Sequence record: PV159336
Source: Escherichia phage W22
Strand: one strand, 5' to 3'
Length of the DNA: 64,000 bases
Below, piece after piece: positions 2-64,000 of this stretch; position 1 is the stretch's first letter; every line of letters starts with the position of its first letter. The notes beneath the pieces are model-generated. The model was not told the origin of the DNA. It searched no databases and saw only the letters and a program-made list of their open reading frames with translations. The position numbers were made by a program, and so were the translations under genes.

Positions 2-112
2 ATCACAGGCTGGGGTTTTGGTGATAAGAAAGAACTTCGTGGTGCTTGGTATTGGTCTGCTCCGCTACAATATTACATTAATGGTAGGTGGATAACAGTA
101 ACCAACGTTTAG
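2..112 (+). CDS. partial CDS (3' end; 5' part lies outside window), product unknown
   Basis: Frame open from window edge to TAG at 110-112 (...RWITVTNV*); RBS of next gene follows directly. Confidence 0.35.
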   Translation: MTGWGFGDKKELRGAWYWSAPLQYYINGRWITVTNV

Positions 113-21745: not shown

Positions 21746-21774
21746 ATTGTAACACAGAAGAGGCTATTTTGCAA
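21746..21774 (-). promoter_or_regulatory. sigma70-like promoter for cell-wall hydrolase gene
   Basis: On - strand TTGCAA (21769-74), 17 nt, TACAAT (21746-51), about 30 nt upstream of start. Confidence 0.5.
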
Positions 21775-21806
21775 GTGGAGGGGGACTATCCCCCTCTTAC
21801 ACTCTG

Positions 21807-29043: not shown

Positions 29044-29120
29044 TCTTTTCTCCTCTTTAATGCGGAGGACAATCCTCCGCTCTATGTCGTATACTATAAA
29101 CTGTTTTTAAAGAAAGTCAA

Positions 29121-51917: not shown

Positions 51918-52132
51918 TATTTTGAAAATTTTTATTTTTATAAAAAGGGGTGTGGGTTTCATGTACAGAAATTCACCCTCTGCACAGTATATCCAGAGTA
52001 AATATTATTCTGTACTCTGTTAATAAAGTATTTAATTTGTTTGTTGGATTATGGTATCTGATCTTTAAAAGGCATACTATCTCTTAACTACTACTTATAA
52101 CAGAACAGTAAAATCATTTTTATAAAAAGGAC

Positions 52133-52340
52133 AAAATTATTTAAAGTTTTTACAGATTTTTGGGTACAAATTTTGAAAATGAAAAGTTCAAGTTTGGTCA
52201 AAATTATTTAAAGTTTTTGTACGTATTTCTATCCAGATTTTGAAAATGAAAACTTCAATTTTTTAAAAATTCCCCAGTTTATTTAAAGTTTTTTTGCCTT
52301 TTTCCGTAGAAAAATCAAAAATGAAAAGTTCAATTTCGTG
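52133..52340. repeat. three tandem AT-rich direct repeats (about 67-77 bp units)
   Basis: Each unit has ATTTAAAGTTTTT (52139, 52206, 52281) and TGAAAATGAAAA(G/C)TTCAA (52174, 52241, 52316). Confidence 0.7.
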
Positions 52341-52359
52341 TTTTTATGGGTATGCGTAT

Positions 52360-52470
52360 GATAATCATTCTCATTTGTAAATGAGAATCATTATCATTTA
52401 ATTATGTAAATGATAAGCATTCTCACTAAGAGAATGAGAATCATTAGCAAATGAGAATTTTTCTCATTTA
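52360..52470. promoter_or_regulatory. palindromic operator-like array built on TGAGAAT/ATTCTCA
   Basis: Three inverted repeats: 52360-52395 (17-bp arms), 52418-52436, 52449-52469; at least 7 copies of the 7-mer in 110 bp. Confidence 0.6.
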
Positions 52471-52730
52471 CAGAATAACGCGCAGGGGCGGTGTTTGTCT
52501 CGCGCTCCCGTGTCCCCTCGCCATACAATAAGAATAGCATAACCAACAACAAAAGCAAGCGATTATTTTTATCTTTACATTTCTTTACAAATTTATTTTG
52601 GACGAGCTACCGGCGATCAACCTTCCAACCAGTGCCCCCTGGTATGTTAGCCCCGCCTTTACGCCGTGGGGGTGGCGTTTCCTCTTCTGTATGTAAAACA
52701 GTATAAGCCCGATCCCTGGGCTTGTCAAGA

Positions 52731-52997
52731 TTATTTTTTGTTTTCTTGCCAGGATAGGACACCTAACCAAAAATACATGTCGCCCCGCGCCCCTGGCGGG
52801 ATCTTGCTTTCCCCGCCGCCACTGCAAGCCCATAAATAACCATCAGCGAACGGATCAAAGTGATCTATCTCTTCCACCTTATGATCGCCCAGGTTGAGAA
52901 CGGTTTCAACCTTTAAGCCCGTTGCGCTTGCTACCTGGTGCACCGTGCCGCCTTGCCAGCCCAATGAGTGCATGAGATGTAAAGGAGTATTTGTCAT
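52731..52997 (-). CDS. hypothetical protein encoded in GC-rich island
   Basis: 88 aa ORF with AAGGG RBS; local GC content far above surrounding phage DNA. Confidence 0.3.
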   Translation of the reverse strand: MTNTPLHLMHSLGWQGGTVHQVASATGLKVETVLNLGDHKVEEIDHFDPFADGYLWACSGGGESKIPPGARGDMYFWLGVLSWQENKK

Positions 52998-53108
52998 GGT
53001 ATCGCCCTTTCTTTGATGTGCGCCCTGGTTGGCGCGGTAGAAAGATAATAGCCGTTTCCTTTATAGATAGCAAGCAAAAAAGAAATGAAAAAAAGATTAA
53101 AAAAATGG

Positions 53109-53170
53109 TTGACGTTCCTCACCTGGTAGCGTAGTATTCATCTTGTCGAGGGGCGGCAATAGTGCCGCTC
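53109..53170 (+). promoter_or_regulatory. sigma70-like promoter plus 5'-UTR hairpin cassette
   Basis: TTGACG 53109-14, 17 nt, TAGTAT 53132-37; hairpin GCGGCA-ATAG-TGCCGC 53153-68. Confidence 0.6.
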
Positions 53171-53192
53171 ATAACAGAAGAGAGAAATAATC

Positions 53193-53465
53193 ATGGCATC
53201 ATATAGCGCATCAATGATCGTAAAGGGTATCACTGGTAAACCTATGCGCGGTGGCGGATCTTTCGCTAACATCAATATTGATGGACGTTTATCCCTGGAC
53301 GCAGCGATCACAGTGGCACGGGAAACGTTTAAAAAAGAATGTAATTTCAATAAACAAGATTATCTCGGTTTCGCTATTGAAAAAACCGCGCGATTTGTGG
53401 ATTATAAAAGCCCGAAAATGATCGACACTACACTAAAAGCGCAAGATGTAGCGTTTTTGCTTTAA
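53193..53465 (+). CDS. hypothetical early protein
   Basis: 90 aa ORF downstream of promoter-hairpin cassette. Confidence 0.5.
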   Translation: MASYSASMIVKGITGKPMRGGGSFANINIDGRLSLDAAITVARETFKKECNFNKQDYLGFAIEKTARFVDYKSPKMIDTTLKAQDVAFLL

Positions 53466-53468
53466 GTC

Positions 53469-53528
53469 TTGACACTGAAAAATAATTTGGTAATATATAC
53501 TCCATAAGGCGGGAAATGGTTTCCCGCC
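53469..53528 (+). promoter_or_regulatory. sigma70-like promoter plus 5'-UTR hairpin cassette
   Basis: TTGACA 53469-74, TAATAT about 53491-96; hairpin GGCGGGAAA-TGG-TTTCCCGCC 53508-28. Confidence 0.65.
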
Positions 53529-53550
53529 AAAACAAAGAAAGGGTAACACA

Positions 53551-53913
53551 ATGAGCAAGCAAATCAATACTATCATGTTAAACCTGGTATCTTTCCGCGA
53601 TGACGTGAAAAACCTTTCGCGTGATGCAGTGGATGCACGGATCGAAAGCTATCGCACACAGATCGCAACGTTACCGCTGAAACGTGATCAACATGCCGCT
53701 AATATGATGCTTGATGCTATGATTAAAAAGATGATTCAATGTGATCTTACCCTGGCTTATGAATATGCTGGCGATCTCTTTGTAACATATAGCAAGCCCG
53801 TTCCAGGTATGAGCACCACGGAAGAATTGCATGCCTTAAATCTGCGACAAGATGCATGGGATAACATGCGCCGTGTTATGGTATGGGTAGAAAGCGGTAA
53901 AATTTACGAATAA
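53551..53913 (+). CDS. hypothetical early protein
   Basis: 120 aa ORF after cassette. Confidence 0.5.
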   Translation: MSKQINTIMLNLVSFRDDVKNLSRDAVDARIESYRTQIATLPLKRDQHAANMMLDAMIKKMIQCDLTLAYEYAGDLFVTYSKPVPGMSTTEELHALNLRQDAWDNMRRVMVWVESGKIYE

Positions 53914-53919
53914 AAACGG

Positions 53920-53973
53920 TTGACATTGCACTAAAACCTGATAAGCTATCTTAAAGCGGGAATAGTTCCCGCT
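53920..53973 (+). promoter_or_regulatory. promoter-like -35 plus 5'-UTR hairpin cassette
   Basis: TTGACA 53920-25 with weak -10; hairpin AGCGGGAA-TAG-TTCCCGCT 53955-73. Confidence 0.5.
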
Positions 53974-53991
53974 TACATAGGATAAAACTTT

Positions 53992-54138
53992 ATGAAACAA
54001 TATGTAATGAGTATTCATACCAAAAACGGCGCTACTGTTACGACTCCGGCACGGTTTGCACTTGTAAACCGTTGCAAGAGACTAAAACGAGAGCTAAAAA
54101 ATAACCGTGCAACGGGCTTTAAACGCTGGGGAGGATAA
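53992..54138 (+). CDS. small basic protein (48 aa), absent from ORF track
   Basis: ATG 53992 after hairpin; K/R-rich; stop TAA 54136-38. Confidence 0.4.
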   Translation: MKQYVMSIHTKNGATVTTPARFALVNRCKRLKRELKNNRATGFKRWGG

Positions 54139-54140
54139 TC

Positions 54141-54401
54141 TTGTTTTTTCTAAAAGTTTTTGATAATGTGATCGCTTTTGAACATGCTACAACGTTCGAC
54201 CTGGCGAGATACGCTATCAGGTTTAAAGATAATGTTTATCCCCGTGCTGGCGGCGGTTACACTATTTTTAATCATCGCAACGCGCAACTGACTGATGTAA
54301 CTAATCCAGATCCTGGAGTGTATCGGATAGGCTGGCTACCGTCAAAAGACGCTGCAAGCATGTTTAAGGTATGTAAACTACTAACAGAAGAGGCGAACTA
54401 G
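54141..54401 (+). CDS. hypothetical early protein
   Basis: TTG start with GGGAGG RBS (GTG alternative at 54168); 86 aa. Confidence 0.4.
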   Translation: MFFLKVFDNVIAFEHATTFDLARYAIRFKDNVYPRAGGGYTIFNHRNAQLTDVTNPDPGVYRIGWLPSKDAASMFKVCKLLTEEAN

Positions 54402-54402
54402 C

Positions 54403-54957
54403 ATGGGGCGTGAATATGTGATCCAGTCCTGGGTAAAGCATGACGCAAATGATCCGCGCATAATACCAGATGACATGATCGATCACATGGTAGGGTATAG
54501 CGGGGAGCAGATAGGAAATCGAGCGGCAAAGAGCAACGGCAACACCAGGACGAGATCCGTTCGCCCTGGATGGCTGGCGAATGGTAACGCTGACATTGCA
54601 AGCGCCGCAGATCCAAGCGATGACGCTAAAAATAATCCCTTATACAGCATTGATCCGGCTTTTAAGGTGTTGGAAGAGTATCCCGCTAAATTAGCCGCAC
54701 TAGACAAGGCATACGAAGAAAAGCGCATGGCCTGGACTGTATACAACACCGCTAAAATGGTGCTAGATGCAAAACTAATTAAAGCCCAGGAGAAGATCAA
54801 TAAACTTGTTACCATAGCACAAGAGGAAGACCAGGGCGACCAGGAGGAAGAGGAAGAAATCATGCCTACCTTGGAAGAGGAAGAGATCCAGCCATACATG
54901 CCGACGGAAGAGGAAAAAAGACAAGCCTTAAAAAATTATGAAAATTGCATTGTGTAA
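54403..54957 (+). CDS. hypothetical early protein with acidic C-terminal tail
   Basis: 184 aa; start overlaps upstream stop (TAGCATG); C-terminus EEDQGDQEEEEE. Confidence 0.5.
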   Translation: MGREYVIQSWVKHDANDPRIIPDDMIDHMVGYSGEQIGNRAAKSNGNTRTRSVRPGWLANGNADIASAADPSDDAKNNPLYSIDPAFKVLEEYPAKLAALDKAYEEKRMAWTVYNTAKMVLDAKLIKAQEKINKLVTIAQEEDQGDQEEEEEIMPTLEEEEIQPYMPTEEEKRQALKNYENCIV

Positions 54958-54960
54958 GGC

Positions 54961-55016
54961 TTGACATATGCAAACAAGCACCGTAATATATACCACATAG
55001 AACGGGGCAACGCCCC
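54961..55016 (+). promoter_or_regulatory. sigma70-like promoter plus 5'-UTR hairpin cassette
   Basis: TTGACA 54961-66, 17 nt, TAATAT 54984-89; hairpin GGGGC-AAC-GCCCC 55004-16. Confidence 0.6.
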
Positions 55017-55038
55017 ATAAAGTGAAATAAAAAATCAC

Positions 55039-55066
55039 TTGACACCTGAAATCAGTAAGCTATAAT
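55039..55066 (+). promoter_or_regulatory. sigma70-like promoter (tandem, no hairpin)
   Basis: TTGACA 55039-44, 16 nt, TATAAT 55061-66. Confidence 0.65.
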
Positions 55067-55103
55067 GCTTATATAAATTAAAGCGTTACTAAGGAATAAA
55101 ATC

Positions 55104-55469
55104 ATGGCTAAAAATATCAATGTTTCTGCTTATGCTACCCTGGCTAACACTGCTAAAATTGAACTGTCCAGCATTGAAGCGGTACATATTAGCGCCCGTC
55201 GCTGGTTTCAAAAGTCTTATGGTAATACTTATTTCTCTTTGATGGTTGACGTTGAGATCGGCGGTAAACTGATTGAAGTCGTTAACGTTCCGTTTCAATA
55301 TGGCTATGGGGATCATTTTGATACCGTTGCCCTAGAAGAGTTTAGCAAGGTTATCAACCTGGAAGGTAAAGAGTTTTCAAATTATGCTTACCTTTCCCGT
55401 TTTTGCCGTGACAATGGGATCGCTGTATACAGTCATGCAAGCGATGTAAAACGTAAAAAAGATTTATAA
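55104..55469 (+). CDS. hypothetical early protein
   Basis: 121 aa ORF with AAGGAA RBS. Confidence 0.5.
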   Translation: MAKNINVSAYATLANTAKIELSSIEAVHISARRWFQKSYGNTYFSLMVDVEIGGKLIEVVNVPFQYGYGDHFDTVALEEFSKVINLEGKEFSNYAYLSRFCRDNGIAVYSHASDVKRKKDL

Positions 55470-55475
55470 AAAGCA

Positions 55476-55533
55476 TTGACAGCACGAATAAAAAGCATAT
55501 AATACTTATATCGAGAGCGGGAATAGTTCCCGC
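55476..55533 (+). promoter_or_regulatory. sigma70-like promoter plus 5'-UTR hairpin cassette
   Basis: TTGACA 55476-81, 16 nt, TATAAT 55498-55503; hairpin GCGGGAA-TAG-TTCCCGC 55517-33. Confidence 0.7.
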
Positions 55534-55557
55534 CTCACTGAAAAAGAGATTAACATC

Positions 55558-55797
55558 ATGGCTAAATCTAAAATGTACAACGGTCACAAAAATAAAACTC
55601 ATTGGAATGTAAGCCTTTGGATTAATAACGATCCAGGTTTTTATAATATGGCAAAAGAATTTATAGCCGTGAACAACAATAAAGATAACGCCGCGCGTGA
55701 AATGATGTCACTACTTAACGAAATGGGCCAAAATACTACGCCAGATGGCTATAAATTCAGTAAAACCAGTATCCGCGCCGCTATGGTAGGAATGTAA
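55558..55797 (+). CDS. hypothetical early protein
   Basis: 79 aa ORF. Confidence 0.5.
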   Translation: MAKSKMYNGHKNKTHWNVSLWINNDPGFYNMAKEFIAVNNNKDNAAREMMSLLNEMGQNTTPDGYKFSKTSIRAAMVGM

Positions 55798-55806
55798 TAA
55801 AAGCAG

Positions 55807-55866
55807 TTGACAACGTTTTTTAATCTGGTATAGTTTATCACATAGGGCGGGAAATGGTTTCCCGCC
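55807..55866 (+). promoter_or_regulatory. sigma70-like promoter plus 5'-UTR hairpin cassette
   Basis: TTGACA 55807-12, 16 nt, TATAGT 55829-34; hairpin GGCGGGAAA-TGG-TTTCCCGCC 55846-66. Confidence 0.65.
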
Positions 55867-55888
55867 AAATGAAAGAAAGGTTATCATT

Positions 55889-56116
55889 ATGGCTATCGTT
55901 ATTGTTCGCGTATCCGGCACGGTTGGAATCTCCCAGGTAGTAGCAGTTATCACCGAGAAGAAAGGGGATGATCTTCACTCCTCCTTGAATAGCTGGGCGG
56001 TCGCTAACTTTGGGCAATGGTCGAGCGTTGAGTACATCGAATCCTACCAGGTGCCAACGATTAGCCTGACCGATCTCAATGTTGATCGTCTGTTATGCCT
56101 GGATGAATTAATCTGA
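55889..56116 (+). CDS. hypothetical early protein
   Basis: 75 aa ORF. Confidence 0.5.
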   Translation: MAIVIVRVSGTVGISQVVAVITEKKGDDLHSSLNSWAVANFGQWSSVEYIESYQVPTISLTDLNVDRLLCLDELI

Positions 56117-56125
56117 AAAAGATTG

Positions 56126-56181
56126 TTGACACGGGAAAGAAAAAGAGTAAACTGTATTACGTAGGGCGGCAATAGTGCCGC
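56126..56181 (+). promoter_or_regulatory. sigma70-like promoter plus 5'-UTR hairpin cassette
   Basis: TTGACA 56126-31, 16 nt, TAAACT 56148-53; hairpin GCGGCA-ATAG-TGCCGC 56166-81. Confidence 0.55.
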
Positions 56182-56206
56182 TCATAACAGAAGAGAGATT
56201 ATCACG

Positions 56207-56422
56207 ATGGTTAATATCCGCACACTGTTAAAAAATGCAAGTCAAGTTTTATTTTCAGATGACGAGTATTTCAACAAAGACATTACAGGCGTGAAAAATT
56301 TAAAAGACGTGAAGGATGTTATCGGTATCCGTGGATCTTTACGTAAAGGTGACATATACGGTAACAAGGTGCAATATAAACTGTCAAAAGATTATGATTT
56401 TACTTTGACAATTATTTCATAA
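56207..56422 (+). CDS. hypothetical early protein
   Basis: 71 aa ORF. Confidence 0.5.
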   Translation: MVNIRTLLKNASQVLFSDDEYFNKDITGVKNLKDVKDVIGIRGSLRKGDIYGNKVQYKLSKDYDFTLTIIS

Positions 56423-56428
56423 AACTAC

Positions 56429-56489
56429 TTGCAAACCTGGTAAAATAAAGTAAACTATATTCATTAAGGCGGTGGAATAGCCCACCGCC
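56429..56489 (+). promoter_or_regulatory. sigma70-like promoter plus 5'-UTR hairpin cassette
   Basis: TTGCAA 56429-34, 16 nt, TAAACT 56451-56; hairpin GGCGGTGG-AATAGC-CCACCGCC 56468-89. Confidence 0.5.
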
Positions 56490-56512
56490 TAACAAAGAGA
56501 AGAGGAAACATC

Positions 56513-56683
56513 ATGATCACTTTCGCTACCCGTGAAGCCGCTCGCAACGTTGCACGTAAAGTTAATGCCGCCAACCTGGGCGCTACGCTTAAAGCCCCGG
56601 TTAAAGATGAATCAGGAAAATGGATCTTCCCTGGTCTGCGTCACGCTGATAAGCTGGGAACATTAACGTTAAAAAATAAATAA
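56513..56683 (+). CDS. small protein (56 aa), absent from ORF track
   Basis: ATG 56513 after hairpin; GAGGAAA RBS. Confidence 0.4.
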   Translation: MITFATREAARNVARKVNAANLGATLKAPVKDESGKWIFPGLRHADKLGTLTLKNK

Positions 56684-56690
56684 TATTCGC

Positions 56691-56749
56691 TTGACAGTAG
56701 CATCATTTATAAGTAAAGTAACAACAACGGCGGGAAATGGTTTCCCGCC
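56691..56749 (+). promoter_or_regulatory. sigma70-like promoter plus 5'-UTR hairpin cassette
   Basis: TTGACA 56691-96, 17 nt, TAAAGT 56714-19; hairpin GGCGGGAAA-TGG-TTTCCCGCC 56729-49. Confidence 0.6.
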
Positions 56750-56769
56750 ATCAATAAAGAGATAAGATT

Positions 56770-57129
56770 ATGAAATCAGTAAAAGCAATTAAAACTTACA
56801 TTGTGTCGGCTATTTCTTTTGATGGTACTACAACCGAAAAAGAAAAGATCACCGAACTGATGCGCCGTTTTAACTCTGAATACTGGTATCAATCTAATCG
56901 TGATCGTTATAATAACAATATGGTACAAGGTGTCAAAAGCTGGTTACAAGGTTTACCGTCAGATATCAATATCGCTTTTAATTATAACGAGATCGATCAA
57001 TTATTAATTGAATGGAAGTACATAAAAGAAACAAGCAAAGAAACAACCGTTACCCGTGAGCGGGAAAATTATTGGTTATATATTGCAAGCATGATCGTAA
57101 CTTTGGCAAAATATCATAACGTAGCGTAA
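56770..57129 (+). CDS. hypothetical early protein
   Basis: 119 aa ORF. Confidence 0.5.
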   Translation: MKSVKAIKTYIVSAISFDGTTTEKEKITELMRRFNSEYWYQSNRDRYNNNMVQGVKSWLQGLPSDINIAFNYNEIDQLLIEWKYIKETSKETTVTRERENYWLYIASMIVTLAKYHNVA

Positions 57130-57143
57130 TCGAGAGGAAAAAC

Positions 57144-57281
57144 ATGAACGCATCACAGCAGATCGAAAAATTCAACCGCAATAAAGCGCGTAAAGATTGG
57201 AACGAAGAGATCACCAAGAAAGGCGACAAGCGGAACAAAACAAAAAGAGATCGCAGCAGCAAAAGATACTGGAACGAATAA
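57144..57281 (+). CDS. small highly basic protein (45 aa), absent from ORF track
   Basis: ATG 57144 with GAGAGGAAA RBS; K/R-rich; followed by terminator. Confidence 0.4.
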   Translation: MNASQQIEKFNRNKARKDWNEEITKKGDKRNKTKRDRSSKRYWNE

Positions 57282-57283
57282 CA

Positions 57284-57308
57284 AAAAGGGCGCAATAAGC
57301 GCCCTTTT
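57284..57308 (+). terminator. rho-independent terminator
   Basis: AAAAGGGCGC-AATAA-GCGCCCTTTT. Confidence 0.7.
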
Positions 57309-57398
57309 AGCTTATATAGAGGCTTGTTGCTTATAGGCAAGGGTAACGCCAGGATAAGCCTATAAACCACGTTAGACGGCTTTACAGGAGCTTTAAAA

Positions 57399-57581
57399 AT
57401 GAAATTAGAGGAAATAAGCAAGGCACTAGCCCAGGGGCAAAGGTTATGCGCCCGATATCGTGATCAATATGGTTTCATAACTAGCGGCGTGATCCTGGGG
57501 ATTGAAGACAATAAGATTTTTATTGACACGTTGAAAAACGTTGTATATAGTGACAATATAATCTCAATAAAACATATATGA
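57399..57581 (+). CDS. hypothetical early protein
   Basis: 60 aa ORF with CAGGAG RBS. Confidence 0.4.
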   Translation: MKLEEISKALAQGQRLCARYRDQYGFITSGVILGIEDNKIFIDTLKNVVYSDNIISIKHI

Positions 57582-57589
57582 GGCAAGAA

Positions 57590-57991
57590 ATGAAAAAATT
57601 ATTGATAGCTGGTTTAATCTCTTTTGGCATGGTTGGAACATCTAGCGCGGCGATATCCTCCACAGTAGCAGAATTAAGCGCCGTTGATGCAATGGAAAAC
57701 GTCATGATCATTAATAATGCGATCCCCGATGAAATCATGGAGGATTCACACATGATCGCTTATGGTGCTGTTACACAATTAACGGCAAAAATAGATAAAT
57801 CTATTGTTAATGGCTTAAATGAAGATGTACCATGTGAAATTATTACCAGTGTGCTAACGACTCAAAATTTTACGCCGTGGTTAAAAAGTATTCAAAAAGT
57901 ACACAGTACAGCCGCAGATCGTAGCAATGAAAAACTAGTGTCAGCACTTGCAACGTATACCCTAGCAAAATGCACCGAAATAAAAGATTGA
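57590..57991 (+). CDS. secreted early protein
   Basis: Start taken at MKKLLIAGL (GAGG RBS); signal peptide ending SSAAIS. Confidence 0.5.
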   Translation: MKKLLIAGLISFGMVGTSSAAISSTVAELSAVDAMENVMIINNAIPDEIMEDSHMIAYGAVTQLTAKIDKSIVNGLNEDVPCEIITSVLTTQNFTPWLKSIQKVHSTAADRSNEKLVSALATYTLAKCTEIKD

Positions 57992-58016
57992 CAACATAGA
58001 AAGCACGTTATAAGAT
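57988..58016 (+). promoter_or_regulatory. sigma70-like promoter (no hairpin)
   Basis: TTGACA 57988-93, 17 nt, TAAGAT 58011-16. Confidence 0.5.
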
Positions 58017-58038
58017 ACACACAACAAAGGAGAACTAC

Positions 58039-58341
58039 ATGAACGGCATAGCTAAAACGTTTTTTCTTTTTTCTGGTGTAAATGACCCATCAATAAAAGT
58101 CGATAGCGTAAAAGAAAACAATACTATCACCGCTAAATTATTTCAAGATGAAACAAATAACGTGCTAATCATTAATCTTAAAGAAATAACAAAAGGTTAT
58201 TATACTATTGCTTACCATGCGATCTATAATGCTGATACTAGTGAGGAAGTGCAAACAAGCAACAACGAAAGCGCGGCGCTACCTGGTGATCTGGTGCTGG
58301 GCGTTATCAGTTTAATTGTCAATGATTTTTTTAAGGAGTAA
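58039..58341 (+). CDS. hypothetical early protein
   Basis: 100 aa ORF with AAGGAG RBS. Confidence 0.5.
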   Translation: MNGIAKTFFLFSGVNDPSIKVDSVKENNTITAKLFQDETNNVLIINLKEITKGYYTIAYHAIYNADTSEEVQTSNNESAALPGDLVLGVISLIVNDFFKE

Positions 58342-58345
58342 AACC

Positions 58346-58441
58346 ATGCCCTATTTACATTTATTTTTCGGGATCTTATTGACAGGATCTTTTTTCTTCT
58401 GTATGCTTGTTTCTATTGTAAACCACGTTTTAAAACATTAA
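58346..58441 (+). CDS. hydrophobic micro-protein (31 aa), absent from ORF track
   Basis: ATG 58346 with TAAGGAG RBS; single predicted TM helix. Confidence 0.35.
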   Translation: MPYLHLFFGILLTGSFFFCMLVSIVNHVLKH

Positions 58442-58599
58442 GGAAACAGCATGAAAATTATTCCCGTACAGTATAGCGTAATAAATCCAGCATATGAGGA
58501 AGGAAGGAAAACAAGCATGGCTTTATGTTGTATTGCTACTATAGCCATGTTATTATACACTGTGTTTTAATAGGTTTTATAGTTGTACGCTTTAAAGGC

Positions 58600-58627
58600 T
58601 TGACAATTTTTTGTTATGCTTTAAAAT
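58600..58627 (+). promoter_or_regulatory. sigma70-like promoter (no hairpin)
   Basis: TTGACA 58600-05, 16 nt, TAAAAT 58622-27. Confidence 0.45.
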
Positions 58628-58670
58628 ATATCTTGAAAACGGCAAAGGCCGCAAACAAAAGGGTAAAATT

Positions 58671-58994
58671 ATGAAATCTGTGATCGGTGTTTATTTGGAT
58701 AACTCTGATTTTTTCTATCATCGTGCGCGTTTACTTGATGCGATTGAAATGATAGAATCAGGCTTTAAAGAGTATCGCCTTGCACATGATGACCTGGAAG
58801 CATTACAGGGCAATAGTGTTTTTACATTGCAAGCTAAAGCACTATGTAAAAGCCGGATCGACATTGCAAGCAAAAAGATAGAACGCGGCATGTCCTGGTT
58901 GCGCACCGCAGAAATCAACATGGGGCAATGGTACGGCGAAAACTTAGAAAATAAACTCACTTTTGTAAATGTAGAAAATATTAAAGATTATTGA
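58671..58994 (+). CDS. hypothetical early protein
   Basis: Start taken at MKSVIGV, downstream of promoter; 107 aa. Confidence 0.45.
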   Translation: MKSVIGVYLDNSDFFYHRARLLDAIEMIESGFKEYRLAHDDLEALQGNSVFTLQAKALCKSRIDIASKKIERGMSWLRTAEINMGQWYGENLENKLTFVNVENIKDY

Positions 58995-59056
58995 TTGACA
59001 GCACACCTGATAAGTAATATATTGTATCTCATAGAGCGGGGAAATGGTTTCCCCGC
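58995..59056 (+). promoter_or_regulatory. sigma70-like promoter plus 5'-UTR hairpin cassette
   Basis: TTGACA 58995-59000, -10 TATATT about 59018-23; hairpin GCGGGGAAA-TGG-TTTCCCCGC 59036-56. Confidence 0.6.
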
Positions 59057-59076
59057 CTTAACAGAAGAGATAAGAT

Positions 59077-59361
59077 ATGAAGATCACAAAAGCACTTTCC
59101 AACTATGCAGCACGTCGCGGCTTATGCTTAACCGTTGAAAACTTAGGGAAAGAAGATTTTTTGTGCTTTTGGGAGCTTGAGAATGATAATGAGTGGATCT
59201 TCTCTTATTCTATCTGCAAAGATCAAAATGGTTGCTTGTTAACCTGGCGCGGTAATATCTATTTGCCGGAAGAAATAAAACAAGAATTACCAGGCACGAT
59301 CATGACTGAGAAACAGCTTAAGGAAGTGATCAATTTTGTAGGGCAAAACATTAAAAAATAA
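59077..59361 (+). CDS. hypothetical early protein
   Basis: 94 aa ORF. Confidence 0.5.
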   Translation: MKITKALSNYAARRGLCLTVENLGKEDFLCFWELENDNEWIFSYSICKDQNGCLLTWRGNIYLPEEIKQELPGTIMTEKQLKEVINFVGQNIKK

Positions 59362-59362
59362 T

Positions 59363-59423
59363 TTGACAGTAGGCAAACAACGTAGTAAAGTTTATCACAT
59401 AGGGCGGGAAATGGTTTCCCGCT
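59363..59423 (+). promoter_or_regulatory. sigma70-like promoter plus 5'-UTR hairpin cassette
   Basis: TTGACA 59363-68, 17 nt, TAAAGT 59386-91; hairpin GGCGGGAAA-TGG-TTTCCCGCT 59403-23. Confidence 0.6.
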
Positions 59424-59445
59424 CACAGCAGAAGAGAAACAAATC

Positions 59446-59616
59446 ATGATCCCAACTATGTTTTACGTATCGCGCAAAGGTCACAATATTTTTTGGTCTG
59501 AAGATTTAAATGAAGCCATGACGTTTGCCCGTGATCGTGTTGCTATCGGTGGCGTTAATATTACCGTAACCGATGAAAACGGCATTGAATACTATAACGG
59601 CGACGATGAAGAGTAA
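59446..59616 (+). CDS. small protein (56 aa), absent from ORF track
   Basis: ATG 59446 after hairpin; acidic C-terminus. Confidence 0.4.
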   Translation: MIPTMFYVSRKGHNIFWSEDLNEAMTFARDRVAIGGVNITVTDENGIEYYNGDDEE

Positions 59617-59623
59617 TTAATAA

Positions 59624-59644
59624 GGCGGGGGAGTATTCCCCGCC
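59624..59644 (+). promoter_or_regulatory. stand-alone 5' hairpin (no recognisable promoter)
   Basis: GGCGGGG-GAGTATT-CCCCGCC between two ORFs; may terminate upstream or mark a processed 5' end. Confidence 0.45.
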
Positions 59645-59663
59645 ATCAATAAAGAGATAAATC

Positions 59664-59933
59664 ATGAAAATATCATTGGACGTTGCAATCAAGGCCATCG
59701 AATCCGGTTACACCCTGGTAAAAGATGATAAGGCTAAAATAGTGCATCATGTTAGCAAGGAAACAGGCGAAAGCATGATCACATATAAAGCCGCCTACTT
59801 TCTCCAATCAGTAGCAGATCCGCGCGTACAGCGCCAGGTCACGGCGGCTATTGCTAAAAAATTATGTGCTTTACAGGGCACAAGTTTTAACGAGATCCCG
59901 CCGTGTTTTGACTGGTCGAGCTTGAAAAAATAG
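59664..59933 (+). CDS. hypothetical early protein
   Basis: 89 aa ORF. Confidence 0.5.
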   Translation: MKISLDVAIKAIESGYTLVKDDKAKIVHHVSKETGESMITYKAAYFLQSVADPRVQRQVTAAIAKKLCALQGTSFNEIPPCFDWSSLKK

Positions 59934-59934
59934 T

Positions 59935-59990
59935 TTGACAATAATTATAAATAGGGTAGAATGTATTGCGTAGGGCGGCAATAGTGCCGC
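59935..59990 (+). promoter_or_regulatory. sigma70-like promoter plus 5'-UTR hairpin cassette
   Basis: TTGACA 59935-40, 16 nt, TAGAAT 59957-62; hairpin GCGGCA-ATAG-TGCCGC 59975-90. Confidence 0.65.
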
Positions 59991-60013
59991 TCACAACTAA
60001 AAGAGAAATCATC

Positions 60014-60208
60014 ATGGCGCTTAAAAAACTAACAAGCAATACTCGTTGGGATGAAATTGACGGGGAAGTATACATTTTCGCCCGTAAACCAGGTGATCAA
60101 AAATGGTCAAAGGCTTTTACTTGTCACCCTGCAACAATAGATCTAATAAAAAGTAAAGGTTTTCGTGAAGCAGTAGCGAGAAGTTTACTGATCCCTTGTA
60201 AAAAATAG
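60014..60208 (+). CDS. hypothetical early protein
   Basis: Start taken at MALKKL (track ORF runs through the hairpin); 64 aa. Confidence 0.45.
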   Translation: MALKKLTSNTRWDEIDGEVYIFARKPGDQKWSKAFTCHPATIDLIKSKGFREAVARSLLIPCKK

Positions 60209-60209
60209 T

Positions 60210-60269
60210 TTGACAATATGCGGTTATCTGGTAAAGTGTACCACGTAGGGCGGGAAATGGTTTCCCGCC
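60210..60269 (+). promoter_or_regulatory. sigma70-like promoter plus 5'-UTR hairpin cassette
   Basis: TTGACA 60210-15, 16 nt, TAAAGT 60232-37; hairpin GGCGGGAAA-TGG-TTTCCCGCC 60249-69. Confidence 0.6.
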
Positions 60270-60287
60270 AGAATAGAGAGAACTAAA

Positions 60288-60392
60288 ATGATTATTCTTA
60301 CCATGATGTGCGCGGCGGTTATTATTCCTTTGATAACGCTTATTGTTTCTGAGATCGATGATCTTCTCTTTGAAAGAAGTTTAAAAAAGTAA
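60288..60392 (+). CDS. hydrophobic micro-protein (34 aa), absent from ORF track
   Basis: ATG 60288 after hairpin; single TM helix. Confidence 0.35.
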   Translation: MIILTMMCAAVIIPLITLIVSEIDDLLFERSLKK

Positions 60393-60455
60393 TTGACAAC
60401 GGCTAATAAGCTGATAATATGTATCACATAGGGCGGGGCAATAAGGCAACGCCCA
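60393..60455 (+). promoter_or_regulatory. sigma70-like promoter plus degenerate hairpin
   Basis: TTGACA 60393-98, 16 nt, TAATAT 60415-20; imperfect hairpin GGGCG...CGCCC 60431-55. Confidence 0.5.
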
Positions 60456-60472
60456 CTAATGAGGGTAGCATC

Positions 60473-60577
60473 ATGTTAGAGAAAATTTTCACGGTTGTAA
60501 TAGTGGGCCTGGCGTTATCGGTTGGAGTGATTGCAACTATGGCTAACATGATCCTATCTTCCCACGGTATTGGATAA
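60473..60577 (+). CDS. hydrophobic micro-protein (34 aa), absent from ORF track
   Basis: ATG 60473; single TM helix. Confidence 0.35.
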   Translation: MLEKIFTVVIVGLALSVGVIATMANMILSSHGIG

Positions 60578-60587
60578 GGTGAAACAA

Positions 60588-60803
60588 ATGATCACGAATA
60601 AGACAGGTAAAACGGAATTTTTACGCGGCTTGCAAATAGGTAAACCTGAGATCTGGTATTGCACTAAAACACCACGTGACGAAATGAAAGACTTTACCGC
60701 CACGCTGAAGCGGGTAAAGATATCTATTACGCAGAAAAAAGCCTTGATAGTAGTAGAAAACGAGATCCCGCAAACCATTATTATTGTTGAGCGTACAGCA
60801 TGA
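60588..60803 (+). CDS. hypothetical early protein
   Basis: Start taken at MITNKTGK with AAGGTGAAA RBS; 71 aa. Confidence 0.45.
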   Translation: MITNKTGKTEFLRGLQIGKPEIWYCTKTPRDEMKDFTATLKRVKISITQKKALIVVENEIPQTIIIVERTA

Positions 60804-61186
60804 AAACAGAAATCATTAACGAAATGATCAACGGCTATAAAGAAGCCTTTATTTTTGCTGAACCAGCGACGGATCACAATGGGGAATATATTGAGAATCT
60901 AGACGATTATGATTTTTCTTCTAGCGCCCTGAAACGTATTACCAGCGATGTGACCGCCTTTTGTAATGCCAATGTTGCCGCTATCTCTGAGGCAATGAGC
61001 GACGGCGCTACAGCAAACCAGATCGGGAATGATTTACATTTTACCCGTAACGGTCACGGCGTAGGCTTTTGGGATCGCCCTGAAATATACACCACTAACA
61101 CGGCGAACCGCCTAACAAATGCCGCTAAATTAATGCCATCGGTGCATGCTTACATTGGTGAAGATAATTTGATTTATATTGAATAA
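60800..61186 (+). CDS. hypothetical early protein
   Basis: 128 aa; ATGA overlap with upstream stop. Confidence 0.5.
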   Translation: MKTEIINEMINGYKEAFIFAEPATDHNGEYIENLDDYDFSSSALKRITSDVTAFCNANVAAISEAMSDGATANQIGNDLHFTRNGHGVGFWDRPEIYTTNTANRLTNAAKLMPSVHAYIGEDNLIYIE

Positions 61187-61192
61187 AAAGTA

Positions 61193-61251
61193 TTGACACC
61201 GATCCCCAGTATGGTATTATTTACCACGTAGGCGGGAAATGGTTTCCCGCC
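61193..61251 (+). promoter_or_regulatory. sigma70-like promoter plus 5'-UTR hairpin cassette
   Basis: TTGACA 61193-98, 16 nt, TATTAT 61215-20; hairpin GGCGGGAAA-TGG-TTTCCCGCC 61231-51. Confidence 0.65.
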
Positions 61252-61274
61252 AGGTAATCAAAAAGGTAAATACT

Positions 61275-61664
61275 ATGCGCAACCTGGTTTCTGTTTCTAA
61301 CGTTGAAAAATTCCAATCCTTGCAGGGTATCGTTAACAACGTAGCGCCTTTTTTAGTCAATGGCTTGATTGCAAAGATGAAAAATAAACATCATGCCGCA
61401 TGGTCTGCTTACTGCTTTGACAATGATGAAAAAGCGGCTGAAATGATGTTAAATATGCTGTTAGACAGTGTAGAATCATCTTTACCGGAAAACATCGCAG
61501 AAGAGATCACCTATCGTTATAATATGGCGATCACTTACCAGGAGGTTGCGCAATTTAATATGATGGACGATGACGAACAACAGGATCAGGAAATTTTCTG
61601 GGAGTATGCTGATCGTCAATCGGCTTTTGATGAAAAGTTAGCGATGTATTATAATGAATATTAA
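61275..61664 (+). CDS. hypothetical early protein
   Basis: Start taken at MRNLVSV after the hairpin; 129 aa. Confidence 0.5.
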   Translation: MRNLVSVSNVEKFQSLQGIVNNVAPFLVNGLIAKMKNKHHAAWSAYCFDNDEKAAEMMLNMLLDSVESSLPENIAEEITYRYNMAITYQEVAQFNMMDDDEQQDQEIFWEYADRQSAFDEKLAMYYNEY

Positions 61665-61676
61665 TACACGGTAAAA

Positions 61677-61705
61677 GAAAGGGGCGCACTAAGCGCCCTT
61701 TTTTG
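61677..61705 (+). terminator. rho-independent terminator
   Basis: GGGGCGC-ACTAA-GCGCCC then TTTTTTG. Confidence 0.7.
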
Positions 61706-61978
61706 TATTCTTTTTTCACGATGGAAACAACACGTAAAGAATAGGCGTAAAGGTGGCGTAAAACAGCCTAAAACCGATTATAACCGCTTAAACAAGGTAG
61801 GGATGATTAATCACCTTACCAGGATGAAAAAGCCGTTATAAAGCTATCTAGAGCGTTTAAAGCACATAGGGAATAATTTGCTTTTTATCTTGCCTTTTAT
61901 TCTGCTTTTGATTATTATTATGGAACGGGCGGCACCTGGGGACAGGGGAAGATAATCACCGGACGACCCCGCTATATA

Positions 61979-61999
61979 TTGATAGCTAACATCTATCAA
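61979..61999. promoter_or_regulatory. inverted repeat, candidate operator
   Basis: TTGATAG-CTAACAT-CTATCAA, 50 bp upstream of promoter at 62049. Confidence 0.35.
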
Positions 62000-62048
62000 A
62001 CAACAAAACATCAAAGAAATAAACTATCAAATCTTTACAATCTCATCT

Positions 62049-62077
62049 ATTGACCGATAAATCATAGCAGTTTAATA
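62049..62077 (+). promoter_or_regulatory. sigma70-like promoter (no hairpin)
   Basis: TTGACC 62049-54, 17 nt, TAATAT 62072-77. Confidence 0.55.
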
Positions 62078-62126
62078 TTGTTTTTAGAGGGTAGAACATA
62101 CCCAAAACGAAAACAGGAAAAAGAAA

Positions 62127-62363
62127 ATGAAAGAAGTCATGATCCTCAAAAAATCACCTATTTTACGTGGTGGCTTTATCGCTTACTCTGATGATCTGTT
62201 AATTGCAACGGTTGCAAAAATACTAAAATCAGAAGAGGATAGTAAAAACGGCGTTTATCGTATCTGTTTCACCCGTGGGAAATTGCAAGGCAAGATCGCC
62301 TATGCTTTTGATTTACAAGATGTAAATGATAAAATCTGCGCTGTTATTGATTATGCAAAATAA
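62127..62363 (+). CDS. hypothetical early protein
   Basis: 78 aa ORF with AGGAAAAAGAAA RBS. Confidence 0.5.
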   Translation: MKEVMILKKSPILRGGFIAYSDDLLIATVAKILKSEEDSKNGVYRICFTRGKLQGKIAYAFDLQDVNDKICAVIDYAK

Positions 62364-62375
62364 TGAACTTTCTTA

Positions 62376-62404
62376 TTGACACCGGATCACGCTTACATTA
62401 TTAT
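62376..62404 (+). promoter_or_regulatory. sigma70-like promoter with lost hairpin
   Basis: TTGACA 62376-81, 17 nt, TATTAT 62399-62404; conserved CACGTAGGGC start motif present but stem absent. Confidence 0.5.
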
Positions 62405-62450
62405 TTATCACGTAGGGCAAATCATTTTAAACGGTAAACGAGGAAACACC

Positions 62451-62834
62451 ATGAGCAATATCATCAACCTGGCAGCGACTGTAAACGGTAAAGACTTTAA
62501 CGGCGCTGTAGACCGTGATCCTATGTGGTGCTTATCAGTGTTTAAAGGCGACCTGGTTGAAGTTAGAACAACCGAAGGGTATAGCGATGATTATAAATGC
62601 GAGATCCATTTACATAACTGGTACACGGGTAAAACTTATGCGCTGAATCACGCGTTTATCGGGAAAATTGAATATCGCGAAATGATCGACGAAGAAACGG
62701 GGCAAGATTTTAGCGATTATGTTTATATTCGTTCCGAAACATTAGCCGAACGGTTGATCGAGAAAATGAAAGCAAAAAATAAAATTAATTTATCTCATTG
62801 GATTGATATAACAAACGATCCAGCTTATCAGTAA
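62451..62834 (+). CDS. hypothetical early protein
   Basis: Start taken at MSNIINL; 127 aa. Confidence 0.5.
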   Translation: MSNIINLAATVNGKDFNGAVDRDPMWCLSVFKGDLVEVRTTEGYSDDYKCEIHLHNWYTGKTYALNHAFIGKIEYREMIDEETGQDFSDYVYIRSETLAERLIEKMKAKNKINLSHWIDITNDPAYQ

Positions 62835-62848
62835 ATAACATTCCATAC

Positions 62849-62876
62849 AAGGGCGCAATAAGCGCCCTTTCTTTTT
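62849..62876 (+). terminator. rho-independent terminator
   Basis: GGGCGC-AATAA-GCGCCC then TTTCTTTTT; same hairpin as 57288-57304. Confidence 0.7.
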
Positions 62877-63169
62877 ACCTCAATAAAGATGATAGCTTTT
62901 ACCTATCAAAAACGTTCACCGAAAAAAGTGAATAGATCGCGGTATCGAGCTAATCAAGGAGCAGATGAATAACCATACCATGAAGATCATAAGGCGCTTA
63001 CAACGTGTTTTAGACCGCTTATTTTTAATTTCTCCATGTAACTATCTGGCAAAAACAGCCTTTTTCTTATCTTTCCTCTTAAATAATAATCATTCTCATT
63101 TATAGCTGATTATTTATGCAATAAACTGAATAATGCAATAATGATAATCATTCTTAACTTAAGACCATC

Positions 63170-63480
63170 TAACCTATAAAATAATAAGTTATCTAACTAA
63201 ATTAAAACTAATTATCTTACTTTTATTTATAACTTACTGTTACTATCTCATTGATAACCTTATATTAAACAACAATAACTAATATAAATCATTACTAAGC
63301 TAAATATAATCTATCTAACCTTTAAAACTATAACTATAATCTATTTAATTATTGCACAAAGTAACTATTAAATCGTTAGTAACATTACTAAATAATTAAT
63401 ATCCTATCTATTTATGATCTAATCTTTACCTTACTATCTATTACCTAAATAATCATTTCATACCGTAATCATTTCATACA
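63170..63480. repeat. G-depleted, extremely AT-rich low-complexity tract
   Basis: About 10 G in 300 nt on + strand; built from CTAA/TTAT/ATCT-type words; no ORF. Confidence 0.7.
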
Positions 63481-63523
63481 ATAATTATAACAAGAAATAT
63501 AATTCGCAAGCGTATCATTAGCA

Positions 63524-63692
63524 GCCTATGCCGGACACATAGGCGGCTAATAATAACGCAACTACACACCTCACATAATAACTATCACCGATAGTTATTA
63601 TCTGTGCTTATGTAGCTTGCAACAATTGCAAGCGCAACAATATACACGGTATATTGTATTCCCTTACATTGTTGCGGTGCGTTATTATTAGC
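63524..63692. repeat. cluster of nested inverted repeats (cruciform/structured-RNA candidate)
   Basis: GCTAATAATAACGC 63546-59 pairs with 63679-92; inner IRs at 63524-44, 63576-63600 (11-bp arms), 63615-33, 63633-76. Confidence 0.65.
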
Positions 63693-63900
63693 TAATGTTT
63701 AGAACATTGGCTATAATATAAGCTATCCAATAATAAACATAGTGAATAATGACCCTGATGATCATAATGCGCCACCTTCCAGGGGGCGCTATGTGAACAC
63801 AAAGAAATCTTTCTTGTCAAGAAAAATATTACCATTATTGCGCAAAATTATTTACATCTGAATAGATGGTTTTTCATACTATTGGCCCAATGTAACTTGT

Positions 63901-64000
63901 CATTTGTTGAGCATAGTTATAGCCTATTTGTTGCAATGTATCTTCCTATTTGTTGCCCTAACTATTGCTATTTGTTGGGTACAACTATTCCTATTTGTTG
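63901..64000. repeat. iteron-like array: five copies of C(T/A)ATTTGTTG at 22-23 bp spacing, running off window edge
   Basis: Copies at 63901, 63924, 63946, 63968, 63991. Confidence 0.7.

Follow-up and report, generated by a model that had tools for sequence, protein, structure and literature searches.

Why are so many small genes in one stretch of phage DNA each preceded by a promoter and a hairpin of similar design, and what could such a hairpin do? The question is raised by Escherichia phage W22 (sequence record PV159336), of which a stretch of 64,000 nucleotides (nt), referred to here as the window, was analysed. A sequence-only reading of the window had described an array of cassettes, each with a promoter and a hairpin in the 5′ UTR (the untranslated 5′ region), driving small early open reading frames (ORFs), and the limits it gave for the array hold to the base, with the first −35 element (TTGACG) starting at 53109 and the last −10 element (TATTAT) ending at 62404. 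We found that the array is real and far from random, and that its regulatory module is conserved widely. With a confidence that stays somewhat below even, we read its units as modular early cassettes in which a 5′-proximal RNA hairpin would stabilise or insulate early mRNAs and which would also act as recombination joints.

Anatomy and statistical significance of the cassette array

The plus strand from 53109 to 62450 carries a dense array of 29 small ORFs (median 79 amino acids), most of which are preceded by an intergenic module of one kind, about 80 bp long. Promoters were searched with a strict sigma70 pattern (TTGACA with at most one mismatch, a spacer of 16–18 nt, and TAnnnT with at most two mismatches to TATAAT), which was matched in 53001–62500 by 20 sites on the plus strand and four sites on the minus strand. 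The expectation from 200 dinucleotide shuffles was 2.4 ± 1.6 sites (maximum 8), and the near-consensus sigma70 promoters claimed for the region were thereby confirmed. The 12 nt upstream of the −35 element were 78% A/T.

A strong hairpin follows 15 of the promoters (−35 starts at 53109, 53469, 53920, 54961, 55476, 55807, 56126, 56429, 56691, 58995, 59363, 59935, 60210, 60393, and 61193; the one at 54961 has only 5 bp, and 56429 has the −35 element TTGCAA), and a weak hairpin of 4–5 bp follows two more (58600 and 62050). One further hairpin, at 59624–59644, has no promoter and lies directly behind the stop codon of the preceding ORF, so that the count of about 17 cassettes in the sequence-only reading was correct. 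Its statement that every early transcript would begin with a stem-loop went too far: four or five promoters of the array lack a hairpin (among them 55039, 57523, 57988, and 62376), and one hairpin lacks a promoter.

The strong hairpins have stems of 7–10 bp and loops of 3–4 nt (6 nt in one case), with free energies of −13 to −19 kcal/mol. The gap between the −10 element and the first paired base was 6–13 nt, mostly 10–11 nt, and not 10–15 nt as had been proposed; likewise, the hairpin was separated from the ribosome-binding site (RBS) by about 7–14 nt instead of 15–25 nt, and from the ATG by 17–24 nt of purine-rich, unpaired leader. Within the 40 nt after the −10 element, a minimum free energy of −12 kcal/mol or lower was reached at 14 of 21 sites, compared with 1.1% of shuffled 40-mers and 1.25% of the 40-mers elsewhere in the window. 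In the predicted folds of all 16 UTRs, with z-scores between −2.9 and −5.2, a single hairpin formed at the 5′ side, and both leader and RBS were left unpaired. The hairpin named as the commonest, GGCGGGAAATGGTTTCCCGCC, occurred in five exact copies and one copy with a single mismatch, all on the plus strand of the array (chance expectation, 0). The start motif CAC(A/G)TAGGG also proved real, motifs of this type being located before 10 hairpins or promoter sites. These counts establish the modular anatomy of the cassettes and their statistical significance. The elements are listed below, with promoters given as −35 element, spacer length, and −10 element.

53109–53192 (+): cassette 1, TTGACG-17-TAGTAT, hairpin 53151–53170 (GGGCGGCAATAGTGCCGCTC, one G.U pair) and leader; ORF 53193–53465
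53469–53550 (+): cassette, TTGACA-16-TAATAT, hairpin 53508–53528 (GGCGGGAAATGGTTTCCCGCC); ORF 53551–53913
53920–53991 (+): cassette, TTGACA-16-TAAGCT, hairpin 53954–53974 (AAGCGGGAATAGTTCCCGCTT); ORF 53992–54138
54961–55103 (+): double cassette, first promoter TTGACA-17-TAATAT, 5-bp hairpin at about 55003–55015; ORF 55104–55469
55039–55066 (+): second promoter of this double cassette, TTGACA-16-TATAAT (consensus), no hairpin
55476–55557 (+): cassette, TTGACA-16-TATAAT, hairpin 55517–55533 (GCGGGAATAGTTCCCGC); ORF 55558–55797 (phrog_871)
55807–55888 (+): cassette, TTGACA-16-TATAGT, CACATAG, hairpin 55846–55866; ORF 55889–56116
56126–56206 (+): cassette, TTGACA-16-TAAACT, hairpin 56164–56183 (GGGCGGCAATAGTGCCGCTC); ORF 56207–56422
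56429–56512 (+): cassette, TTGCAA-16-TAAACT, hairpin 56467–56490 (AGGCGGTGGAATAGCCCACCGCCT); ORF 56513–56683
56691–56769 (+): cassette, TTGACA-17-TAAAGT, hairpin 56729–56749; ORF 56770–57129
57284–57308: true intrinsic terminator, two-way (AAAAGGGCGCAATAAGCGCCCTTTT), end of transcription unit 1
57523–57589 (+): promoter TTGACA-17-TATAGT within ORF 57399–57581, no hairpin; ORF 57590–57991
57988–58038 (+): promoter TTGACA-17-TAAGAT, short leader, no hairpin; ORF 58039–58341
58600–58670 (+): cassette with weak 4-bp hairpin 58640–58651 (CGGCAAAGGCCG); ORF 58671–58994
58995–59076 (+): cassette, TTGACA-17-TATATT, hairpin 59036–59056 (GCGGGGAAATGGTTTCCCCGC); ORF 59077–59361
59363–59445 (+): cassette, TTGACA-17-TAAAGT, hairpin 59402–59424 (GGGCGGGAAATGGTTTCCCGCTC); ORF 59446–59616
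59617–59663 (+): promoterless hairpin 59624–59644 (GGCGGGGGAGTATTCCCCGCC) and leader; ORF 59664–59933
59935–60013 (+): cassette, TTGACA-16-TAGAAT, hairpin 59973–59992; ORF 60014–60208
60210–60287 (+): cassette, TTGACA-16-TAAAGT, hairpin 60249–60269; ORF 60288–60392
60393–60472 (+): cassette, TTGACA-16-TAATAT, interrupted hairpin 60431–60455 (GGGCG..GC..GC..CGCCC); ORF 60473–60577
61193–61274 (+): cassette, TTGACA-16-TATTAT, hairpin 61231–61251; ORF 61275–61664
61676–61704 (+): true intrinsic terminator with T-run, end of transcription unit 2
62050–62126 (+): promoter TTGACC-17-TAATAT, weak 5-bp hairpin 62089–62103; ORF 62127–62363
62376–62450 (+): promoter TTGACA-17-TATTAT, retains CACGTAGGG, no hairpin; ORF 62451–62834 (phrog_1507; annotated in phi92 as a Gp30.8-like protein)
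62849–62869 (+): true intrinsic terminator with T-run, end of array

The three canonical terminators (57284–57308, 61676–61704, and 62849–62869) split the array into three units. T-runs are present at these three sites, while the 10 nt behind each of the 15 hairpins contain only 0–2 T.

Conservation, covariation, and recombination of the cassettes

The window belongs to a phi92-like myovirus (Justusliebigvirus). Its array region shares 95–97% identity with EC.P2, KKE7M, phi92, and other phages of this genus, and its identity to Phapecoctavirus is 85–88% and patchy. In phi92, the array takes up the final 10 kb, after which come AT-rich non-coding DNA and the right terminal repeat. Genes for replication and nucleotide metabolism are located upstream of the array on the opposite strand. 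A PHROGs scan of 20 array ORFs assigned 18 to families, all of unknown function, and gave no match for two. The gene content of the array differs between close relatives.

A motif search of related phages, suggested as a check in the sequence-only reading, revealed that the design recurs in Phapecoctavirus, Vequintavirinae, and PBECO4. The order of promoter, hairpin, and leader is present in phi92, ZCKP1, ESCO13, nieznany, and UP17, and in A5-4, rV5, PVP-SE1, and CR3 of the Vequintavirinae. PBECO4 (Asteriusvirus, NC_027364, 142863–159001), an unrelated jumbo phage of 348 kb, has a cassette array of its own, with at least nine cassettes in about 8 kb of the form TACTTGCAA-N17-TATAAT-gttttACATnn-hairpin-SD-ATG (SD, Shine–Dalgarno sequence) and hairpins such as GGGGAGAAATGGTTCTCCC. 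Among 72 unique cassettes from 11 phages, the hairpin was downstream of the −10 element in all, with a gap of 10–11 nt in 48; taken together with the 15 window cassettes, it started 6–14 nt past the −10 element. Position 7 after the −10 element was C in 53 of the 72, and position 8 was a purine in 66 (A in 40 and G in 26).

The stems varied among the phages (GGCGGGAAA, GGGCGGCA, GCGGAGGA, GGGGAGAA, GGCCGGGGAA, GGGGCAA, and GTGGGGAA), and their arms remained complementary. Orthologous genes of different phages carried distinct hairpin variants at the same position; the A5-4 ortholog of ORF 59664–59933, for example, has a promoter and a different hairpin, unlike the promoterless window copy. Covariation was evaluated on 44 distinct triloop hairpins in a fixed-window alignment, as MAFFT misregistered the pairs when 3- and 4-nt loops were mixed. 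In this set, 93% of the cells were paired, a value that is partly circular since the hairpins had been selected for pairing. The informative part of the covariation is the double-sided changes, which were observed in seven of nine pairs; the covariation score was 0.55 against 0.23 for shuffled sets (none of 500 reached 0.55), and controls with slid partners did not exceed 0.19. These data show that the cassette is conserved, with covarying stems, in three large enterobacterial myovirus lineages.

The loops were less uniform. At orthologous sites they varied between TAG, CTA (an inversion), TTG, CAC, and TAC. In the ortholog of hairpin 53954–53974, EC.P2 has the loop CTA, the reverse complement of TAG, with an unchanged stem, and phi92 has TTG; the change from TAG to CTA is a small inversion typical of DNA palindromes. 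The spacing of the outer blocks GCGG..CCGC was also variable (8–12 bp).

Run on the whole window, a covariance model retrieved the array, palindromic echoes on the opposite strand, and an extra minus-strand cassette at 29.1 kb. Because such echoes could not be filtered, the model was not used for the cross-phage alignment. Rfam (52000–64000, E ≤ 1) contained no family for the hairpin and gave only a chance BsrG hit in an AT-rich region. The cassette had no match in 5,426 E. coli genomes, and it is therefore not a copy of a host element. An exact scan of IMG/VR for the hairpin returned three loci on two contigs.

When the window was compared with phi92, ZCKP1, and ESCO13, the BLAST breakpoints were nearly always in cassettes, and often in the hairpin (53151/53153, 53527, 56729, 59439, 59629/59645, 60254, 61243/61250, and 62054), a location that is partly trivial because the cassettes are the intergenic regions. 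Of eight internal breakpoints in the comparison with phi92, six were in cassettes, one was 10 nt upstream of a cassette, and one was at a cassette-free gene junction. Chimeric cassettes were also identified. The phage nieznany has no ortholog of ORF 56207 (216 nt) and has in its place a single cassette, whose promoter half corresponds to the cassette before the missing ORF and whose hairpin and leader half corresponds to the next cassette; the crossover lies within a 15-nt stretch common to both (AGTAAACTGTATTAC). Cassette 1 of the window is a fusion of a phi92 promoter (locus position 6110) and the hairpin of the next phi92 cassette, joined at AGGGG|CGG, and the gp225 segment of phi92 is not present there. 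The unrelated PBECO4 also has ORF 55558–55797 (phrog_871), accompanied there by a similarly designed cassette. Sequence comparison thus gives good support to the view that the cassettes are joints for the gain, loss, and swap of small genes between related phages, a point missed by the sequence-only reading.

The closest named concept is the promoter-early stem-loop (PeSL) of the T4-like phages RB49/phi1, T4/PST, and KVP40/nt-1 (PMC2839356, Arbiol et al. 2010; PMC4122927, Comeau et al. 2014). A PeSL is a conserved stretch of about 100 bp between genes that combines an AT-rich tract and a strong early promoter of the sigma70 type with a GC stem-loop and runs up to the SD and ATG of a small ORFan; its stem-loop was shown to terminate upstream transcription and sits just ahead of the promoter, between its two hexamers, or over the −10 element (PMC2839356, PMC4122927). 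The array likewise has near-consensus sigma70-type promoters, AT-rich upstream tracts, and SD–ATG ends. In both systems, the modules exist in many copies in plastic, ORFan-rich early regions, insertions, deletions, and replacements among relatives end in the modules, and chimeric elements remain. However, the array hairpin is downstream of the −10 element in all cases and is transcribed from its own promoter, so that its position is not that of a PeSL; moreover, it has no U-tract, its sequences differ, and the phages are unrelated to the T4-like phages. The suggestion that such an architecture had been described for some large virulent enterobacterial phages therefore fits the PeSL in general design but not in the position of the stem-loop. 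The module is a PeSL-type mobile regulatory cassette of other phage lineages, with the hairpin shifted into the 5′ UTR.

Small expression units that move between phages are also represented by the morons, the promoter–gene–terminator units of lambdoid phages (PMC2839356). The array cassettes are similarly self-contained, and one ORF with its cassette is shared with PBECO4; they differ in being repeated and in having no terminator per gene, whereas morons have their own terminators and need no conserved flanking repeats. Clustered RpoD-like promoters with UP-like elements before short hypothetical early ORFs were reported for rV5 (PMC3606486) and for the jumbo phage CBB of the wider group of PBECO4 (PMC5259590). 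The genomic setting is the same as in W22 for both, and rV5 belongs to the same phage supergroup; these two papers list promoters predicted by consensus, along with rho-independent terminators, and mention no 5′-UTR hairpin (PMC3606486, PMC5259590). No description of a 5′-UTR hairpin in these phages was found in the literature searched, which did not cover the phi92 genome paper.

Candidate roles of the hairpin

In the reading that we prefer, the region of this phi92-like myovirus would be an early-gene array that depends on the host RNA polymerase. Its repeated module of about 80 bp comprises an A/T-rich tract, a near-consensus sigma70 promoter, a conserved start region (..CAC-R-TAG..), a GC-rich hairpin of 7–10 bp, and a purine-rich leader of 17–24 nt, predicted to be unstructured, with a weak SD and the ATG of a small ORF. 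The C-purine at positions 7–8 after the −10 element matches a start-site pattern and is therefore the predicted start site; transcription would begin 8 nt past the −10 element, on the conserved purine, transcripts would begin with R-U-A-(G), and the stem would start from +4 or +5, leaving 3–4 unpaired 5′ nt. From sequence evidence we infer that the hairpin has its role in RNA. It would act as an RNA structure and not as a terminator, and would hinder RppH and RNase E from attacking its own transcript by way of the 5′ end. Where transcription reads through from upstream, the hairpin would block 3′ exonucleases between cistrons and insulate each leader and RBS, which would stay unpaired and free for ribosomes. 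A second role, or consequence, of the conserved cassettes would be to serve as joints for homologous recombination, at which ORFs are shuffled in the manner of the PeSLs of T4-like phages. That the hairpin is a transcribed structure, as the sequence-only reading had assumed, is borne out by its location downstream of the −10 element, its tightly fixed distance, and the pairing kept across stems and subfamilies.

Such 5′ structures have known counterparts. The leader of T7 gene 10 has a 5′-terminal stabilising stem-loop. The ompA and papA mRNAs also have 5′-terminal stabilising stem-loops (cited in PMC3997798). As in these mRNAs, a stable hairpin of the array UTRs would lie within a few nucleotides of the predicted 5′ end, and the leader and RBS behind it would be unstructured. 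The differences are that the known cases concern single genes with measured effects on half-life, whereas the array hairpins form a repeated family that shares a conserved sequence at the apex, and that the array transcripts may keep 3–4 unpaired 5′ nt, a distance that depends on the predicted start (C-purine at positions 7–8 after the −10 element).

Several observations count against this reading. RppH-type enzymes require only 2–3 unpaired nt (PMC3997798), and protection from scanning RNase E is negligible unless the stem-loop is fully terminal (PMC11194081). Because the predicted 3–4 unpaired nt are borderline and non-terminal stem-loops protect poorly, our confidence was kept below even. 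Transcript 5′ ends or half-lives for these phages were not found in the literature searched. The four or five promoters without a hairpin, the partly circular pairing percentage, and the partly trivial location of breakpoints also speak against it, as do two breakpoints at gene junctions without a cassette (54403 and 60795). Wobble pairs and A.C mismatches were about equally frequent in the 44 unique stems (12 G.T and 13 A.C), with no sense-strand signature of RNA selection, so that this count did not discriminate between selection on RNA and on DNA. Finally, the loop (A)T(A/G)G occurred in 39 of 88 unique hairpins in one orientation and never as the reverse complement, and the apical RAAUGGUUY was kept across Stephanstirmvirinae, Vequintavirinae, and PBECO4 while the stems varied; an oriented, conserved loop therefore fits sequence-specific recognition better than a generic stabiliser.

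Recognition of this kind is at the centre of a second explanation, which we regard as rather unlikely, namely that a dedicated trans-acting factor, either an early or middle phage protein or a common enterobacterial host protein, recognises the hairpin in RNA. The factor would control the early transcripts jointly, for example through timed translational shut-off or cleavage, modification of the RNA polymerase, or selective protection, in which early mRNAs would be spared while the phage accelerates host mRNA decay. The strictly oriented apical motif, retained despite covarying stems, agrees with this explanation, as do the presence of one cis-element in about 16 independent transcripts and the fixed distances of the hairpin to both the promoter and the start codon. 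However, the loops vary at orthologous sites, no candidate binding protein was identified, boxA and an Rfam family are lacking, and the likeness of the loops could be explained by common descent and horizontal cassette transfer. Among known systems, lambda nut boxB and HK022 put are nascent-RNA hairpins that modify RNA polymerase just past phage early promoters, and the array hairpin resembles them in being small and shortly downstream of an early promoter. It differs in its loops (UGG, UAG, AUAG, or AUGG, and not a purine pentaloop), in being present per gene and not per operon, and in giving no match in Rfam; no boxA-like sequence was detected in 53001–62900 on either strand, and we know of no N-like protein in these phages. 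We give an equally low probability to the broader proposal that hairpins with an apical RAAUGGUUY/AAUAG are an unrecognised RNA signal that marks early transcripts for one trans-acting factor in the unrelated lineages Stephanstirmvirinae, Vequintavirinae, and Asteriusvirus, in which case the factor would most simply be a common host protein or a widely exchanged phage protein.

A PeSL-like attenuator or terminator that limits upstream read-through, each gene being driven mainly by its own promoter, appears quite improbable. The RB49 PeSL stem-loop reduced downstream lacZ as strongly as rrnB T1 (PMC2839356), about 20 tandem promoters in the array are served by just three canonical terminators, and the promoterless hairpin at 59624 directly follows a stop codon; nevertheless, a hairpin downstream of its own promoter would equally stop its own transcript, its U-tract is absent (0–2 T in the next 10 nt) in comparison with the three real terminators, and the PeSL stem-loops are upstream of or within the promoter, unlike those of the array. 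It appears very unlikely that the hairpin has no role of its own in expression and, as a recombinogenic palindrome carried along with the promoter, is homogenised by frequent recombination or gene conversion between cassettes and matters only as DNA homology for gene shuffling. The chimeric cassettes with breakpoints within hairpins, the inversion of the TAG loop to CTA, the absence of a sense-strand wobble bias, and the existence of hairpinless promoters are in line with this explanation, but a palindrome is not needed for homologous recombination, the distance downstream of the −10 element is fixed in 72 unique cassettes, and pairing is maintained with very different stems in distant lineages with a constant loop orientation. 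The least probable explanation, to which we attach very little weight, is a DNA operator centred near +15 at which a dimeric phage repressor would shut off early transcription. An operator is compatible with a near-perfect inverted repeat at the place used by operators such as lacO1, with a single site for each early promoter, which would permit coordinated shut-off, and with mismatches free of strand bias. The half-sites, however, are spaced by 8–12 bp and differ in sequence between cassettes and phages, and the variable GCGG..CCGC spacing therefore disfavours a rigid dimeric DNA-binding site; in addition, the central loop is asymmetric with its orientation kept, and a hairpin is retained where there is no promoter.

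Other candidates were rejected. An ordinary intrinsic terminator does not agree with GC hairpins without a U-tract, and an N4-type hairpin promoter was dropped because a complete sigma70 promoter lies upstream; we also know of no virion RNA polymerase in this phage group. RNase III sites were dropped, as the stems are just 7–10 bp. A small ORF from the AUG in the AAAUGGUUU loop (e.g., 55854–55940) would exist in one hairpin type only, has no SD, and is in different frames between cassettes. For a CsrA-type GGA loop site, GGA was in the stem or absent in the main hairpin types.

Surroundings of the array and implications

Other sigma70-like promoters in the window, mostly before minus-strand genes, have short leaders without hairpins. 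The sole exception is the extra cassette retrieved by the covariance model, which fronts a gene among the replication genes and has a different stem (GCGGAGGA/TCCTCCGC).

29044–29120 (−): isolated cassette outside the array, TTGACT-16-TATAGT, CATAGA, hairpin 29080–29062 (GCGGAGGATTGTCCTCCGC) and leader; ATG at 29043

At about 21760–21800 on the minus strand, a hairpin (GGGGGAtagTCCCCC) is located directly upstream of a TTGCAA-17-TACAAT promoter, which is the PeSL order and the reverse of that in the array. Within the array region, a separate sigma70-like promoter (61890–61985, plus strand, TTGCCT-17-TATTAT) precedes about 55 nt of non-coding sequence, GGGCGGCACCTGGGGACAGGGGAAGATAATCACCGGACGACCCCGC, which is kept across subfamilies (A5-4, rV5, and CR3). 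Its consensus fold was weak, and no compensatory pairs were found in it; the sequence may represent either a small RNA or a site for protein binding.

Behind the array, 62870–64000 is non-coding with a GC content of 29% and contains many short direct and inverted repeats, including iteron-like CTATTTGTTG repeats every 22–23 bp in 63923–64000 that continue past the end of the window. Its phi92 counterpart precedes the right terminal repeat, and the segment may be an origin or a packaging/terminus region. GATC sites are about twice as dense in the early array (52000–64000, 31–35 per 4 kb) as elsewhere in the window (13–22 per 4 kb). In the close relative JohannJBalmer, the replication genes that lie upstream of the array include one for a Dam-like N6-adenine methyltransferase.

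Two sets of database records were anomalous. Among the megablast hits, 17 records carry the name 'Campylobacter phage' (MG0656xx) with C. jejuni as host; their identity to these coliphages is about 96%, so the host labels look doubtful. Bases 1–900 of Enterococcus phage heks (MT119359) contain two Phapecoctavirus-like genes and a promoter–hairpin cassette in a siphovirus record; heks is probably an assembly chimera because it shares its Danish wastewater origin with the coliphage nieznany.

About 290 sequenced phi92-like, phAPEC8-like, and rV5-like phages bear such arrays, many of them therapy candidates, and the function of almost all genes in the arrays is unknown. The element is readily testable because the predicted start site, stem, and loop are defined to the nucleotide. 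Should the stability or timing of every early mRNA be set by the hairpin, it would offer a single entry to understanding how these phages take over the host, as well as a compact, portable promoter/5′-UTR part for expression in E. coli; if it is instead an RNA signal for a trans-acting factor, a single factor would act on all early mRNAs at once, by protecting, silencing, or processing them. The cassettes account for the mosaic early regions of these phages, in which genes are deleted, inserted, and exchanged even across phage families, and the PeSL idea of modular shuffling is thereby extended beyond the T4-like phages.

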